Positions 57,781-64,000 of a DNA stretch of 64,000 nucleotides are shown piece after piece. Every line of letters begins with the position of its first letter. The first letter of the stretch is position 1. Where the stretch lies: positions 32,001 to 96,000 of the forward strand of contig JAVYVS010000002.1 in NCBI GenBank assembly GCA_038727515.1, read 5' to 3'. The translations under genes and the position numbers were made by a program. The notes below the pieces were generated by a model, which saw only the letters and a list, made by a program, of their open reading frames with translations, had not been told where the DNA came from and made no database searches. This stretch comes from Candidatus Methanomethylicia archaeon (GTDB lineage: Archaea > Thermoproteota > Methanomethylicia > Culexarchaeales > Culexarchaeaceae).

Positions 57781-58029
57781 CAAATACCGGTATTTAAATG
57801 GATAAAAATACATTAAAATTCATCATAAAAGGGATTTTTCAGTATTTATCTATATCTTCTAAAAGTAGCTCATCACACAGTTTTCCCTAATCTTTTCATT
57901 TAGTTTTCTATTTTCCTTCTAGTTTCCATGACATTTTTACTCTAAAAAGTTTAATCTCAGCCTTAACCTAGCCATGGACTAGCGAGGTGTGGACATTAAC
58001 TTATTTAAAGATCTGAATATGGGAGGTAG

Positions 58030-58104
58030 CGGGCCCGCCGGGATTTGAACCCGGGGCCTCTGGCTCCGGAGGCCAACGCTCTATCCAAACTGAGCTACGG
58101 GCCC
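58030..58104 (-). tRNA. tRNA-Arg(CCG), intronless, CCA not encoded
   Basis: Reverse complement reads GGGCCCGTAGCTCAGTTTGGATAGAGCGTTGGC-CTCCGGA-GCCAGAGGCCCCGGGTTCAAATCCCGGCGGGCCCG. Confidence 0.96.
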
Positions 58105-58122
58105 GATTTTTCCTATCCGAAC
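58081..58122. repeat. Left attachment site: CTATCCAAACTGAGCTACGGGCCC + GATTTTTCCTATCC + GAAC
   Basis: 58081-58104 matches 61670-61693; 58105-58118 equals 61662-61675; 58111-58122 is the reverse complement of 61652-61663. Confidence 0.85.
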
Positions 58123-58153
58123 ATTTATATATCTCTTCCTCCCCTTTTTCTTG

Positions 58154-59390
58154 ATGCGTCTTGGAGAAGTTTAGTTATAGACACGCATTTTCTAAAAGAG
58201 CTCTGAGGCTTACGCAGAAGTTAGGGCTTGATTTGATGAGCTTAAGGTTTTGAGAAGTGGAAGAACAGCCCACGACTATCTGGATATGCTTGCTGGTTTT
58301 GTTGAAAGCTCTGGAAAATCCCCTAAAGATTTAGTTGGGCTATCTTCCAGTGAAGCATATGATGTTTTGAGGAAATGGGATTTATCTGAACTTCGCAAAT
58401 GTTCCTACACTACTGGAAGACTTTATGTTTTATGGAATGCTGTCAAAAACTTCTTGAAATTTCATGGAATTGAGGTGAAAAATAAACCGCCTTTCAAGAA
58501 GACTGTGAAATACTTGGACAAGATTCCAACGAAGGAAGAGTTAAGGCAAATATTAAATGCAGCTTCAAGCCTTTCAACCAAAATTGCCATTGAGCTGATG
58601 CGTTATGGAGGATTAAGACCAAAGGACATATGTGATTTAACCTACTCAAGCATAAAAAACGATTTTGAGGGGGGAAGTCCATTTGCAGTGTTTGTTCCAC
58701 AGGCAAAAAGTGACAGCGTTTACGTCACTTTTATTCCGGAGACAACTGTTGGGCTGATTCGCCAATATTTTAGGTTTAGGGAAAGTAAGGGAGAGAAAAT
58801 AATTGATAAAAGCCCTATAATAGCAAACCCGAGGTATCCAAGCAAAGGGATTAGGAGAAAAACGTTAACAGCCAAAATAGAAAAGGTGATTGCTAAGAGC
58901 GGAATTCAATCGCAGTTAACCTTTGGAAACAAAATTCAGAGAATTAGGCCCTACAGTTTAAGAAAGTATTTTTAGGAGCAATTTAACTGGGCATGCCCCA
59001 AACGAGTATATTGAGGCTTGGCCACACCTCCGGCTTAGAGCATGTATACAGCGGGACAAGGGATCTGGACCCTTCCACAATTGAAAGGATGCGTGAGGTT
59101 TACAAGAGATGTGAACCTTCCCTTTTAGCCACAGCCCAACCGCTAGATCAAAATTCCTTGGTTACAGAAGCAAAAATAGAAGCCTTGAAAAGCATAGCAA
59201 AAAGCCTCCTATGAATAGACCTGCTCGATGTTAAAGTTGCAAAAGAAAGGCAGATTGGAAGAGAGTTAAGCAAGGACGAAGAACTCTAGCTTTACGAGAA
59301 AGAGCTGAAAAAACTAAGAGAGGGAAAACATAACCCCCAAAGGATAATACATGAAAGAGAGCTTGAAAAATACATTTCCCAAGAAGACAT
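58154..59390 (+). pseudogene. Tyrosine recombinase/integrase pseudogene
   Basis: The 58250-58975 fragment has GLRPKDI and IRPYSLRKYF. Frameshifts then lead to (L)GHTSGLEHVY (catalytic Tyr region) in 58993-59214. In-frame TGA/TAG stops occur upstream and downstream. Ends are approximate. Confidence 0.85.
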
Positions 59391-59432
59391 AAAGAAGGTT
59401 AAAGAACTGATTATAAAGGCGATCATGGAGAA

Positions 59433-60014
59433 ATGAGCGAAAATTTTGAGGAACTCTTATTTGCGGACATTCTTGTCAGAAAAATTGAAATTAAGGAGAT
59501 TTCGCCTTGCACCGCCGACCCGGAAAGGATTAAGTTTTTGGCGCAGGCTGACAAGCTCCTAGAAGATGTTTTGCCGATTCTCTATTTGGCTATTCCAAAC
59601 GCCAAATACTCCGAAAAGCTCGGCGCATTAAGCTACGTGTACCAGCAACACCTGATAACCATTTTCGCTAATGGCAGAATCAGCATGACCTACGTCAAAG
59701 ATAGAAACGAGGCAAACCAACTCGTCGAAGAGGCTAGGCAACTAATAAACCGCGCCATCATATACCTGAAAACCCATGGAAAGCCAAGCCCCGAAATGAT
59801 TCATGCCAAAAAAGAATTAACACCAGTAAAGATTTACGAGTTGTTGCCGAAAACGAACTGCAAAATGTGCGGGGAGCAAAGCTGCTTCGCTTTTGCAGCC
59901 AAACTTCTAAACGGAGAAAAAACATTGCAGGACTGTCCACCATTGGAGTCTAAGGAGTACGAAGCCTTCAAGTTTCAAATAGAGAGGATGATGAATCCAA
60001 TTAGGCTGAAGTAG
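59433..60014 (+). CDS. Fe-S-binding protein with C-terminal CdhE/RnfB-type 4-Cys domain
   Basis: N-terminal SPCTADP domain; C-terminal LPKTNCKMCGEQSCFAFA...CPPL. Confidence 0.85.
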   Translation: MSENFEELLFADILVRKIEIKEISPCTADPERIKFLAQADKLLEDVLPILYLAIPNAKYSEKLGALSYVYQQHLITIFANGRISMTYVKDRNEANQLVEEARQLINRAIIYLKTHGKPSPEMIHAKKELTPVKIYELLPKTNCKMCGEQSCFAFAAKLLNGEKTLQDCPPLESKEYEAFKFQIERMMNPIRLK

Positions 60015-60029
60015 AAGCTTTTAAGAAAC

Positions 60030-60047
60030 ATATTTAAATATTTTAAT
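60030..60047. promoter_or_regulatory. Putative ArsR operator upstream of arsR
   Basis: ATATTTAAATATTTTAAT is 16/18 identical to 61155-61172 and is an imperfect 7-2-7 inverted repeat. Confidence 0.55.
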
Positions 60048-60061
60048 CTCACTATTTATGC

Positions 60062-60448
60062 TTGGTAAACAAAATGCTTGAATCTAAAATTGATAAAAGG
60101 CTTATGAGGTTGATAAGTTCCGGACGTTGTCCTCATGAAGATCCGCAGAGATACGTTGCTGAGCTAAGACATCTTGCGGATGATGTGGCGAGGGTTGATG
60201 AGGCTGAGGAGCGATGCAAATTTTTTAAGGCTTTGGCGGACACGACGAGGCTTAGGATTTTGAAGCTTTTGGGCGTTAGGGAAATGTGTGTTTGCGAGGT
60301 TATGATAGCCCTTGATTTAACCCAGCCAACAGCTTCGCATCACTTAAAAATACTGGAAAACGCTGGGCTAGTTAAAGGCAGAAAAAAGGGAAGATGGGTA
60401 TACTACAGCGTTAAGAATCCAAAGATAATTGAAAGTATGTTTCAGTAA
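60062..60448 (+). CDS. arsR: ArsR/SmtB family metalloregulator with alpha3 CVC motif
   Basis: FFKALADTTRLRIL, EMCVCEV, SHHLKILENAGLV and GRWVYYS. Confidence 0.92.
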   Translation: MVNKMLESKIDKRLMRLISSGRCPHEDPQRYVAELRHLADDVARVDEAEERCKFFKALADTTRLRILKLLGVREMCVCEVMIALDLTQPTASHHLKILENAGLVKGRKKGRWVYYSVKNPKIIESMFQ

Positions 60449-60461
60449 GACTTTGCAAGCC

Positions 60462-60746
60462 TTAACGGTAACCGTATTTCTCTCGCAATTCTCTAAGCAT
60501 CTGCTTAAGTTCCTGCCTTGAAGGGAAGCTTATGGCTCCCACTGGGCACCGCGGTCTACATGACTCGCATCCTACTAGACAATTGTAAGGTCTTGCAACA
60601 ACTACCTTGTCGCCCTGCTTTTCGTAAACATGTTCATGGCAGAATTCCACACAGATTCCGCAACCAATGCAAAGCTCATGATTAATTGTTGGAAACCATT
60701 TAATCTCCTTTCGCGGTATCCCTAAATACGTTTTCTCCTCGCCCAT
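60462..60746 (-). CDS. 2x[4Fe-4S] ferredoxin
   Basis: WFPTINHELCIGCGICVEFC...CLVGCESCRPRCP; likely start is ATG 60746. Confidence 0.9.
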   Translation of the reverse strand: MGEEKTYLGIPRKEIKWFPTINHELCIGCGICVEFCHEHVYEKQGDKVVVARPYNCLVGCESCRPRCPVGAISFPSRQELKQMLRELREKYGYR

Positions 60747-60747
60747 C

Positions 60748-61128
60748 TTACGCGCCAACCACCTTACTTACAGCTTCCTCAACCTTCTTCATGGCCTCTG
60801 CCGTCTCCATATTCCTCAAATCCAGAGAAATTACTTGCTTGTCAAAGTCTAAGCCCTTTTCAGCAAAAGCGTCCTTAAACATTTTCCTCTGCATCCTTGG
60901 GTCGCATCCACCGATAATGTATATTTTGTCTTTATCCGTTTCCTTCAAGTAATCCCTGAGAAAGTTGTCCCCATCCGTGACGCAAAGCTGAGGATGGATT
61001 ATAGCGTATTCTACGTCAAGCTCATTTCTAACAAAGTTTATAAACTTCCACAAATCCAACTTTGCAAATCCGGGACATTCACCAGTACAGAAACACATTA
61101 TAAATCTTGGCAATTTCCTCTCACTCAT
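60748..61128 (-). CDS. Small Cys-rich protein resembling the stand-alone N-terminal domain of HdrA
   Basis: CFCTGEC...HPQLC...GGCDPR...DLRN pattern; ATG 61128 follows AAGGTGA. Confidence 0.7.
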   Translation of the reverse strand: MSERKLPRFIMCFCTGECPGFAKLDLWKFINFVRNELDVEYAIIHPQLCVTDGDNFLRDYLKETDKDKIYIIGGCDPRMQRKMFKDAFAEKGLDFDKQVISLDLRNMETAEAMKKVEEAVSKVVGA

Positions 61129-61154
61129 ATTTTTCACCTTGTTAGTTGAAGATT

Positions 61155-61172
61155 ATATTTAAACATTTAAAT
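61155..61172. promoter_or_regulatory. Putative ArsR operator upstream of the HdrA-like/ferredoxin operon
   Basis: ATATTTAAACATTTAAAT contains the perfect 7-2-7 inverted repeat ATTTAAA-CA-TTTAAAT. Confidence 0.55.
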
Positions 61173-61220
61173 TTATCGTTTTGAAGTTTCCATTTTAAAG
61201 GAAAATTGCGTTAATTTTGA

Positions 61221-61601
61221 CAGCTATTATTAGAAGCCACTCGTGCAGACCTATTTACCACAGACCTGGCCATATATGAAGCCTGTAACAGCCTCTGGAA
61301 GCTTTCAACATTATTGAAATCAATATCCATAGAGGATGCCATAGACACCGCCACCACGATAAAAGACTTAGCCACAAGAGGCGTGATAAAAACAATAAAA
61401 TTCACAAAACTAGACTTTTCCCACACATTTCAAATAGCTTACAAAGAAGGGATAACCTTCTACGACGCCTCATACATAGCAACAGCTAGAAACGCAGAAG
61501 TCACCCTAGTAACAGAAGACGAAAAACTAAAGGAAACAGCAAGAAAATTCATAAAAACAATAACATATTCAGACCTCGAAAACAAACTAACTCAAACCTA
61601 A
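61221..61601 (+). pseudogene. vapC: 5'-truncated VapC/PIN toxin gene
   Basis: Frame is open from 61221 with LAIYEACNSLWK...ITFYDASYIA..LVTEDEKL. The first PIN aspartate strand, a start codon and the antitoxin are all missing. Confidence 0.75.
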
Positions 61602-61651
61602 CAGCCAAAAATGAAAGTGTATCTGAAAACGCGCGAATACCATAGATATAG

Positions 61652-61693
61652 GTTCGGATAGGATTTTTCCTATCCATGCTGAGCTACGGGCTC
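61652..61693. repeat. Right attachment site: GTTCGGATAGGA-TTTT-TCCTATCC + degenerate copy of the tRNA-Arg 5' end
   Basis: Direct and inverted matches to 58081-58122. Confidence 0.85.
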
Positions 61694-61805
61694 AATTTTC
61701 ATGGATTATTTCACTTTATTTTTAATGAATTCTCAATTTTGTTATATTTTTGTTTAAGTTTATTATATAAGTTTCTTTGCATAATTTATGTTATTGGTGT
61801 AAAGT

Positions 61806-62027
61806 TTGGGTAAAATTGATAGGGGCGTCAATTGTAGTATTGTTGATTGCAATAAATCTGCTATTCGCTCATTATCTTATTCTGAGTTTTCTAAAGTTGC
61901 ACCTAAAGCTGGGTTAAGTATTGGCTCTAATGCTCCACGTAGAGTTTATCTCTGTGAGGATCATTATAAGGTTTTTAAGAAGTTTTTGAGGAAGGAGAAA
62001 ATGTATGAGAAATGGAGATATGGTTAG
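61806..62027 (+). CDS. Small zinc-binding protein overlapping the polB1 start
   Basis: C-x4-C...C-x2-H pattern (CSIVDC, YLCEDHYK) and a basic C-terminus. Confidence 0.75.
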   Translation: MGKIDRGVNCSIVDCNKSAIRSLSYSEFSKVAPKAGLSIGSNAPRRVYLCEDHYKVFKKFLRKEKMYEKWRYG

Positions 62028-64000
62028 AAGTGAGGAAGAAGAGGTTTTTGAAGAAGAAGAGGAGTTTAGAGAATCTTTTGAGGAAGAGGAATTAGAGGTT
62101 GTTCCAATTAGTGTTGAAGAACCTGATAATACTGGTCCATGTATACTTTTAGCTGTGGTTTATGATGGTTCTGCTGGTAAAGCTCTTTGTAAACTTTATG
62201 ATCCAAATTCAAAGAAGATTTATTATTGGCATGATAAGAGCGGACATATGCCATATTGCCTTACAGATTTAACCCCTAATCAAGTTAAAATGCATAGTGT
62301 AGTTACACATAAGGGTTATAGGGGTGTTGTTGAAGTTGAGAAGTATGATCCTATAAGAGATTCTATTGTTAAGTTGTCTAAAATTATTGCTTCAGATCCA
62401 TTGGCTATTGGTGGTAGGAGGAAGAGTATTAGGGAAATTCTTCCAAAGGCTTGGGAGGATAGGATTCCATACAATAATTGCTATATTTATGATACTGGTT
62501 TAATTCCTGGGTTATATTATAGGATTGTTAATGGGTATCTACAGCCTGTACCTCTAGATATTCCTACGGATGTTTCAAAACAAATTATAAAGATTTTTGA
62601 AGATGAACCCACTGAAGTTTTAGATTGCGTTAAGGAATGGCTTCCACTATTTCTAGTTCCAGTTCCAGATATACCTAGATTGGCTGTAGATATTGAGGTT
62701 TTATCTACTGCTGATAGAATTCCAGAACCTTCAAAAGCTGAAGACCCTGTTATATGTATTTCATGTGCATCTTCTGATGGTTTAAAGAAGGTATTTATGC
62801 TTAAGAGGGAAGGTATTGATAGTGGGATTAGACCTGTAAATCTTCCAGAGGATGTTGAATTGGAATTTTATGATGATGAGGCTGAGATGCTTTTAAATGT
62901 TTTTAAACTTATAACTTCTTATCCCATAATTCTAACTTTTAATGGTGATGATTTCGATTTAAATTATCTTAGGCATAGAGCTTCAAATATTGGTATTAAA
63001 CGTGAAAATATTCCATTGGCTATGGGTAGGAATTATGTTGATGTTGTTCCAGGGGTTCATATAGATTTATATAAGTTCTTTAGTAATAGGTCGATTCAAG
63101 TTTATGCGTTTGGAAATAAGTATAAGGATGCAACTCTAGATGCTATAGCTAATTCTCTCCTTGGAATTGGAAAGATAAGTTTAGATCGTTTGATTAGTGA
63201 ATTATCATATTATGATCTTGCTGCGTACTGTTTTAGGGATGCTGAAATAACGCTTAAGCTAACTACATTTAATGATGGAGTTGTTATGAAGCTTATACTA
63301 TTACTTATGCGAATTAGTAAACTTAGTATGGGTGATGTAGTTCGTAGGGGGGTTTCTGTTTGGATTAGGAATATGCTCTATTATGAACATAGGAAGAGGA
63401 ATTATTTGATTCCATCTAAAGAGGATATTATTGCTTCTAAGGGTGTTTCTGTTACTAAAGCTTTAATTAAGGGTAAAAAGTATATGGGGGCTATTGTAAT
63501 TGAACCTAAATCTGGTGTATACTTTGATGTAACAGTTCTAGATTTTGCTTCTCTATATCCTTCTGTACTCTATAGATGGAATTTATCTTATGAAACCATT
63601 AATTGCCCACATGAAGAATGTAAGAGTAATAGGGTTCCAGAACTTCCACATTGGGTTTGTGTTAAGAGGAGGGGGTTATCTTCAATAATAATTGGCATGC
63701 TTAGAAATATGAGGGTTTATTGGTTTAAACCTAAGGCTAAAGATAAGAGTTTAGATGATGCTGTTAGGACTTGGTATTCAGTTGTTGAGCAGGGTTTAAA
63801 AGTGTTTTTAAATGCTAGTTATGGAGTTATGGGTGATGAAAACTTTCCATTATATTGCCCACCGGTTGCTGAAAGTATAACTGCTATTGGTAGATATGTA
63901 ATTTCTAAAACTATTGGAAAAGCTAGGGAATTGGGTGTTGAAGTATTATATGGCGATACCGATAGCATCTTTCTACATAGACCAACTCAAGAGCAAGTTA
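62020..64000 (+). CDS. polB1: Family B DNA polymerase, PolB1 type (3'-partial; absent from the ORF track)
   Basis: ATG 62020. LLAVVYDG..GKA..KLYDP, Exo motifs DIEV and TFNGDDFD, DFASLYPS (63541), KVFLNASYG and YGDTDS are all in one frame. Confidence 0.95.
   Translation, partial: MVRSEEEEVFEEEEEFRESFEEEELEVVPISVEEPDNTGPCILLAVVYDGSAGKALCKLYDPNSKKIYYWHDKSGHMPYCLTDLTPNQVKMHSVVTHKGYRGVVEVEKYDPIRDSIVKLSKIIASDPLAIGGRRKSIREILPKAWEDRIPYNNCYIYDTGLIPGLYYRIVNGYLQPVPLDIPTDVSKQIIKIFEDEPTEVLDCVKEWLPLFLVPVPDIPRLAVDIEVLSTADRIPEPSKAEDPVICISCASSDGLKKVFMLKREGIDSGIRPVNLPEDVELEFYDDEAEMLLNVFKLITSYPIILTFNGDDFDLNYLRHRASNIGIKRENIPLAMGRNYVDVVPGVHIDLYKFFSNRSIQVYAFGNKYKDATLDAIANSLLGIGKISLDRLISELSYYDLAAYCFRDAEITLKLTTFNDGVVMKLILLLMRISKLSMGDVVRRGVSVWIRNMLYYEHRKRNYLIPSKEDIIASKGVSVTKALIKGKKYMGAIVIEPKSGVYFDVTVLDFASLYPSVLYRWNLSYETINCPHEECKSNRVPELPHWVCVKRRGLSSIIIGMLRNMRVYWFKPKAKDKSLDDAVRTWYSVVEQGLKVFLNASYGVMGDENFPLYCPPVAESITAIGRYVISKTIGKARELGVEVLYGDTDSIFLHRPTQEQV

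Follow-up and report, generated by a model that had tools for sequence, protein, structure and literature searches.

A window of 64,000 nucleotides (nt), comprising positions 32,001-96,000 of contig JAVYVS010000002.1 (GCA_038727515.1), was analyzed from the 1.59-Mb genome of a Candidatus Methanomethylicia archaeon. All coordinates below are those of the window unless another locus is named. Our principal finding concerns a decayed 3.6-kb element at 58105-61693, which is very probably an immobile integrative element that entered the single-copy tRNA-Arg(CCG) gene at its 5' end through a crossover within tRNA nt 1-15, and whose backbone consists of an integrase gene and a vapBC toxin-antitoxin pair. 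The instance in the window is itself an ordinary dead island. The family of integrases to which it belongs, mostly from Bathyarchaeia, sits systematically at the starts of tRNA genes and is apparently undescribed. The features at the two ends of the element, where attL and attR are its left and right attachment (att) sites, are as follows.

58029..58104, minus strand: tRNA-Arg(CCG) gene (ARAGORN), intact and the sole copy in the genome; its nt 1-15 (58090-58104) are the left att core
58105..58132, unstranded: right arm of the element in attL, with a 6-nt spacer, a conserved 12-mer arm site (58111-58122) and a TATA box, TTTATATA (58124-58131)
61642..61675, unstranded: left arm of the element in attR, in which the arm site recurs in inverted form (61652-61663, extended to 61642) along with a hexamer-bearing site that adjoins the core
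61679..61693, unstranded: right att core, which repeats tRNA nt 1-15 except for a single C>T change acquired later, preceded by an element-derived hexamer and triplet (61670-61678)
61694..61730, unstranded: original upstream flank of the tRNA with its probable native promoter (AT-rich box at 61714-61725), severed from the tRNA

The tRNA gene lies on the minus strand with the element to its right, and the initial annotation was therefore correct in placing the element upstream of the tRNA 5' end. The uninterrupted site was found in another genus of the same family (locus L087, genome G005), where tRNA-Arg(CCG) directly abuts a homologue of the window's right flank, followed by a zinc-ribbon open reading frame (ORF) and polB. 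An empty site had been proposed as something to look for in related genomes, and the one at this tRNA-Arg(CCG)/polB flank is identical in arrangement to the product predicted for excision through the tRNA-derived repeat, namely a single restored tRNA. A repeat of a tRNA segment at both ends, an integrase gene beside one of them and an empty site in a relative place the locus among tRNA-targeting integrative elements. A further genus of the family, g2, has the polB flank with no tRNA within 1.5 kb and is uninformative on the state of the site. In a third genus (G004), a remnant of about 350 nt (L089:114-480), comprising the arm and the start of the integrase, is present at the same tRNA-Arg(CCG), with the TATA box lost. 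This remnant may go back to an old insertion that the genera have in common, or the site may have been used more than once.

The same insertion was also present in a genome from another metagenome (L047), which is 98.2% identical to the window over 6 kb and has an unmutated right-hand core. Its integrase shares two lesions with that of the window and carries others of its own. Because this independent assembly has the same structure, the repeat at the right end of the window, which had been flagged as a possible misassembly, is genuine.

The end repeats described in the initial annotation were confirmed at the stated places, with small corrections. A direct repeat (58081-58110 and 61670-61699) has 26/30 identities, of which the tRNA-derived 24 nt account for 21/24, and a 14-mer, here called B, is identical at 58105-58118 and 61662-61675. 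An inverted repeat just inside both ends (58111-58122 and 61652-61663) is perfect over 12/12 positions and extends, with 19/22 identities, to 58111-58132 and 61642-61663. Four copies of the hexamer CTATCC or its complement are present, at 58081, 58113 and 61670 and, in inverted orientation, at 61656. The inverted arm site and the hexamer-bearing site together form an 8-4-8 palindrome at 61656-61675, with a predicted hairpin of -10.8 kcal/mol (z -4.4).

AT-rich DNA can produce repeats of this length by chance. Among 300 Markov-1 resamples of the AT-rich 5 kb at this locus, 12% contained a direct repeat of at least 14 nt and 78% an inverted repeat of at least 12 nt. Repeat length alone is thus within chance, and it is position and conservation that make the window repeats real. 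Throughout the 1.59-Mb genome, B and the 20-nt palindrome were confined to the element ends, and the 12-mer arm site, allowing at most one mismatch, occurred at the element ends and at one other place. Moreover, the same arms border independent elements in other genomes. Together with the agreement of the L047 assembly, these observations make it extremely improbable that the repeat at the right end arose by chance or through faulty assembly.

Next, the site of the crossover was delimited by comparing the six elements for which both ends were recognized: that of the window together with L047 (3.6 kb), L003 (2.2 kb), L021 (1.5 kb), L019/L092 (11.7 kb), L052 (4.9 kb) and L017/L095 (36.2 kb). In all six, the identity between attL and attR covers tRNA nt 1-15, and in L017 it covers 23 nt with one mismatch. 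Past the tRNA end the flanks diverge immediately, the window alone having a short A/T run. On the other side of the core, attL retains the D-loop of the tRNA, while attR carries the element hexamer and triplet. In L021 and L019/L092 this hexamer and triplet are unlike the D-loop of the target, indicating that the 24-nt "duplication" of the window is a 15-nt core next to a D-loop-like element arm. The 24-nt repeat noted earlier is therefore present, but the true copy of the target is nt 1-15 and not 24 nt. A crossover on the anticodon side of the hexamer would have placed the element hexamer in attL and is excluded, so that recombination took place within tRNA nt 1-15, where the exact cleavage points would lie. 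In the genome of the window, the core 15-mer CTGAGCTACGGGCCC heads about 11 tRNA genes, in keeping with the target hopping seen among close relatives.

The 12-22 nt inverted repeat just inside both ends, with a T run flanking each, would also be expected of a transposon that has terminal inverted repeats, made a 4-bp TTTT target duplication and landed by chance beside the tRNA. The insertion, however, includes the 15-nt copy of the tRNA start, which is absent from the empty site, and the gene present is a tyrosine integrase and not a transposase. About 50 loci, with different tRNAs, show this position relative to the tRNA gene, and the stub agrees with the target each time. We consider a transposon very improbable.

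The initial annotation had further proposed a second crossover core, through B. The integrase would then also recombine the two copies of B, giving a circle with a perfect 12-4-12 palindrome (or, read otherwise, a dif-like 11-6-11 palindrome) and leaving a tandem tRNA-5' scar in the chromosome. Xer enzymes act on sites of 11-6-11 geometry, and the enzyme considered here is XerA-like. Both ends of the window element carry B exactly, both ends of L003, L021 and L019 carry it in slightly diverged form, and the left arms of attP, the attachment site of the element itself, look like partial tandem copies of core and B in L040 and L052. However, a search of 97 loci and of viral contigs yielded neither a chromosome with the predicted scar nor a contig carrying the perfect palindrome, and the empty site L087 lacks B. 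In L003, L021, L019 and L052 the right flanks have nothing in common with B, which shows that normal integration does not use it. Recombination through B is thus unlikely and, with no product of such a crossover and no empty site carrying B, we did not retain it. A single core at tRNA nt 1-15 is the reading followed below.

The interior of the element contains the following features.

58161..59434, plus strand: tyrosine integrase pseudogene, TTG start at 58161, Pfam PF00589; read from translations against the integrase alignment
59433..61137, unstranded: cargo block of four genes, which appears to replace vapB and the start of vapC
59433-60014, plus strand: cargo, iron-sulfur (Fe-S) domain protein
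60062-60448, plus strand: cargo, ArsR regulator
60462-60758, minus strand: cargo, 2x[4Fe-4S] ferredoxin
60748-61137, minus strand: cargo, 129-amino-acid (aa) Cys-rich protein
61221..61601, plus strand: PIN/VapC gene, 5'-truncated, 78% identical to the PIN gene adjoining attR of the 2.2-kb L003 element

About 57 nt separate the start codon of the integrase from the tRNA end. The reading frame is broken by frameshifts near 58215, 58975 and 59020 and by several in-frame stops, and its C-terminal end has been replaced. The ORF still matches PF00589 with 31 bits (Pfam cut-off 27.1), which assigns it to the tyrosine recombinase superfamily. The catalytic residues R142, K173, Y255xxR258, H280 and Y288 vary hardly or not at all in the family alignment, and their codons are present in the window although the frame is broken. 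The GC (guanine plus cytosine) content is 39-45% within the element and 27-35% in the flanks, so that the composition of the element is foreign to its surroundings. The L003 element consists of an integrase gene, a 74-aa gene and a PIN gene, and nothing else. In view of this make-up and of the 78% identity between the two PIN genes, the backbone of the element is an integrase plus a vapBC pair, and the ArsR/Fe-S block appears to have come in later as a replacement. This GC-rich cargo (59433-61137) combines the ArsR regulator with three Fe-S or Cys-rich proteins and contains no arsenic effector gene. Beyond the right end of the element, at 61806-62142, a zinc-ribbon ORF of 73 aa overlaps the beginning of a gene that encodes a DNA polymerase of family B with a long acidic N-terminal extension.

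The distribution of the integrase family was established from 16 relatives obtained by protein search and 75 loci obtained by scans of genome and metagenome contigs. The relatives are 38-100% identical, and the named records are mostly metagenome-assembled genomes (MAGs) of Bathyarchaeia, with one Hadarchaeota MAG. In about 52 of the 56 assessable loci (upstream DNA present, integrases at least 41% identical), the 5' end of a tRNA gene lies 49-182 nt upstream of the integrase and divergent from it. Exceptions are L040 and a tRNA-free outgroup, L063-65, at 36-39% identity. The targets comprise tRNA Arg-CCG, Arg-GCG, Arg-UCU, Lys-UUU, Pro and His and several intron-bearing tRNAs. Hence, the expectation that homologous integrases sit 5' of tRNA genes held, but their supposed restriction to tRNA-Arg did not, since Lys, Pro and His tRNAs are targeted as well. 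A FastTree tree groups the integrases into clades that correspond to the sequence of tRNA nt 1-15, with Lys-targeting integrases nested among those targeting Arg-GCG. The integrase frame is open over at least 330 codons in 35 loci, of which 32 are tRNA-adjacent and 3 belong to the tRNA-free outgroup. The protein is a two-domain tyrosine recombinase with its best profile and fold matches to archaeal XerA (the fold also matches lambda Int), and its C-terminus is extended by about 100 aa that are helical with a small beta part. A scan of viral contigs with the integrase profile gave no match.

Several loci of this survey showed features of their own. The metagenome contigs L003 and L004 have tRNA-Lys and an identical integrase in common and then diverge completely; L003 ends at 2.2 kb, and no right end was found within 5 kb in L004. 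The 36-kb island from L017:9867 to L095:219 (G064:C3:421529-457719) is bounded by copies of a tRNA-Lys start and has an open integrase frame together with genes for a TPR protein, a Swt1-like HEPN protein, a DNA methylase and a homologue of class-I Trp/Tyr tRNA synthetases. Within the 11.7-kb interval at tRNA-Arg(UCU) (L019:9899-21246 with L092) lie a full radA gene (Rad51 domain, E 6e-67), a ParB-like gene, a gene for a rhodanese protein and a frameshifted integrase gene; this content could reflect host-gene capture or rearrangement between att sites. A second, distant integrase-like ORF with 28% identity (L002, G000:C3:87336-87719) has the usual 3' arrangement, lying downstream of genes for tRNA-Ala and tRNA-Val.

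To describe the attachment site of the element, attP was reconstructed for clade A by joining attR to attL. It begins with an inverted 12-mer, a 4-nt T run and the hexamer-bearing site; a 3-nt spacer then separates this site from the 15-nt core, and a 6-nt spacer separates the core from the direct 12-mer. The first two sites form the 8-4-8 palindrome, which resembles a Xer site when read as 11-6-11. The conserved 12-mers and the core-adjacent palindrome are most likely binding sites for protein in attP. Degenerate second copies of core and spacer were seen in the left arms of L052 and L040, and these fit a descent of the arms from tandem att copies equally as well as a binding role. In a palindrome scan of 62 genomes across the class, the copy in the window and one other match, probably due to chance, were obtained. 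Locus L040 (880-1000 and 6244-8634) has an open integrase frame and an MCM-like helicase gene; its core is preceded by a degenerate core end and spacer in place of a tRNA, and may be the free attP of an episome, the contig itself being not circular.

The initial annotation had suggested that the integrase reads the D-loop hexamer. Strict covariation between the arm hexamer and the D-loop of the target was considered and rejected, as the clade A arm is unchanged on targets with different D-loops; this constancy identifies the arm as a feature of the element and not a copy of the target. A looser relation was detected among 41 distinct attL sequences, in which the arm segment 32 nt from the D-loop of the target resembles that D-loop, with a mean of 5.05/9 identities compared to about 2.4 at other offsets and 3.9 at the next-best one. 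By eye, the resemblance holds in 6/7 clades. Since related attL sequences are not independent, it is a lead and not proof, and a hint is what survives of the suggestion. It is possible, though rather doubtful, that attP is unusual in the following way: a 15-nt core shared by many tRNAs would let relatives hop between targets, three half-sites imitating the D-loop would be phased at 32 bp, with one pair being dif-like, and a XerA-derived enzyme would read the D-arm as a half-site of the core and build its synapse from the mimics carried by the element. If so, this would constitute a second, independent archaeal route to integration at the 5' end of tRNA genes with obligatory replacement of the promoter.

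The position of the TATA box bears on such a replacement. In the window, TTTATATA is positioned 20-27 nt ahead of the tRNA 5' end and about 30 nt ahead of the start of the integrase, and the AT-rich box of the displaced native flank is at a similar distance. A TATA-like octamer with at most one mismatch starts 18-25 nt from the tRNA end in 30/41 distinct attL sequences, and most of the remaining ones have looser TATA-like boxes at that position. We infer that the TATA box of the element replaces the promoter of the tRNA. In the most likely course of events, the tyrosine recombinase joined attP of the element with the first 15 nt of tRNA-Arg(CCG), which leaves a complete tRNA on the left and, on the right, a 15-nt stub preceded by the element arm. 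The tRNA is thereby cut off from its native promoter, and the arm offers a suitably spaced TATA box that the tRNA would share with the integrase gene, the two lying head to head. The ArsR/Fe-S cargo would be a later gain of the integrase and vapBC backbone. The arm probably remains intact, though the integrase has decayed, because it supplies the TATA box of the tRNA. Dead elements of such a kind could not be lost cleanly if the host tRNA depends on their arm.

Several observations weigh against this account of the locus and its family. A recognizable right end was found in six elements only, with none within 5-11 kb for most loci with an open integrase frame, and radA inside L019/L092 implies that some att pairs may bound rearranged host DNA and not simple elements. 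Recombination is deduced from assembled sequence, and the copy in the window is dead. The use of the element promoter by the tRNA is likewise a prediction, and the remnant in G004 has lost the TATA box yet keeps its tRNA.

Recombination at the 5'-distal part of tRNA genes is much rarer than at the 3' part (PMC6563490), and archaeal integrases generally prefer the tRNA 3' end (PMC8371274). A 2021 review of archaeal tyrosine recombinases described pTN3-like integrases as unique in archaea in using the tRNA 5' half (PMC8371274). On integration of these elements the tRNA is rebuilt complete but loses the promoter it had, and its transcription is thought to depend on that of the integrase (PMC8371274, PMC5495485). 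In pTN3, 41 bp are common with tRNA-Leu, the minimal site covers nt 2-44 including the anticodon loop, and attP is located inside int, which is split on integration (PMC5495485). Targeting of tRNA 5' ends in archaea is thus rare but described (PMC8371274, PMC6563490, PMC5495485), and to speak of a poorly described class, as was done at first, overstates the case; papers on archaeal proviruses and on the viruses of Bathyarchaeia yielded no description of the family reported here. One of the rare 5'-distal tRNA integrations listed by Krupovic et al. 2019, CalSub-E1 of Ca. Caldiarchaeum subterraneum, is a single case for which no family-level rule was described. With pNOB8-type elements the family shares an integrase gene that stays whole after integration and adjoins one att site, but the att sites described for that type are 40-50 bp (PMC8371274), as opposed to a core of nt 1-15 at the tRNA start. 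Archaeal XerA, the chromosome-dimer resolvase, is the best profile and structural match, has two domains as well, and has a parallel in the dif-like 11-6-11 palindrome of the element's left arm. The present integrases nevertheless score 50-71 bits with the XerA profile NF040815, below its equivalog cut-off of 220, have the additional C-terminal region, and are element-borne, tRNA-adjacent and often pseudogenes.

A close parallel is with the pTN3-like elements (pTN3 and TKV4 of Thermococcales, and the SSV-type "suicidal" integrases), with which the family shares an attB (the chromosomal target site) in the 5' part of the tRNA. The window element could itself be of this pTN3/SSV type, as it lies on the same side of the tRNA and has the same consequence for the tRNA promoter as in pTN3 (PMC5495485, PMC8371274). 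Yet in 32 tRNA-adjacent loci the integrase frame is open over its full length beside attL, so that attP is not within the integrase gene, and the division of that gene into Int(N) and Int(C) was not seen in this family. The identity of 15 nt stops short of the anticodon, compared to 41 bp for pTN3 (PMC5495485). The L003 integrase (P0002) gave no tblastn match in plasmid and phage collections, in which the inclusion of pTN3 is unconfirmed, and the best matches are to XerA. A suicidal integrase element is therefore highly unlikely. The family instead appears to be a second, unrelated-looking lineage of 5'-tRNA-targeting integrases, set apart from pTN3-like ones, going by the descriptions of the latter, by its core of nt 1-15, an attP upstream of an unsplit int and a XerA-like protein with a C-terminal extension of about 100 aa. 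It targets tRNA starts systematically, with its own gene unharmed, through a very short core common to many tRNAs, and it would take over the tRNA promoter. Its natural attL/attR pairs and apparently intact enzymes offer a test set for the way in which a Xer-like recombinase selects tRNA starts, a target that, among archaeal integrases, had been regarded as peculiar to the pTN3-like group.

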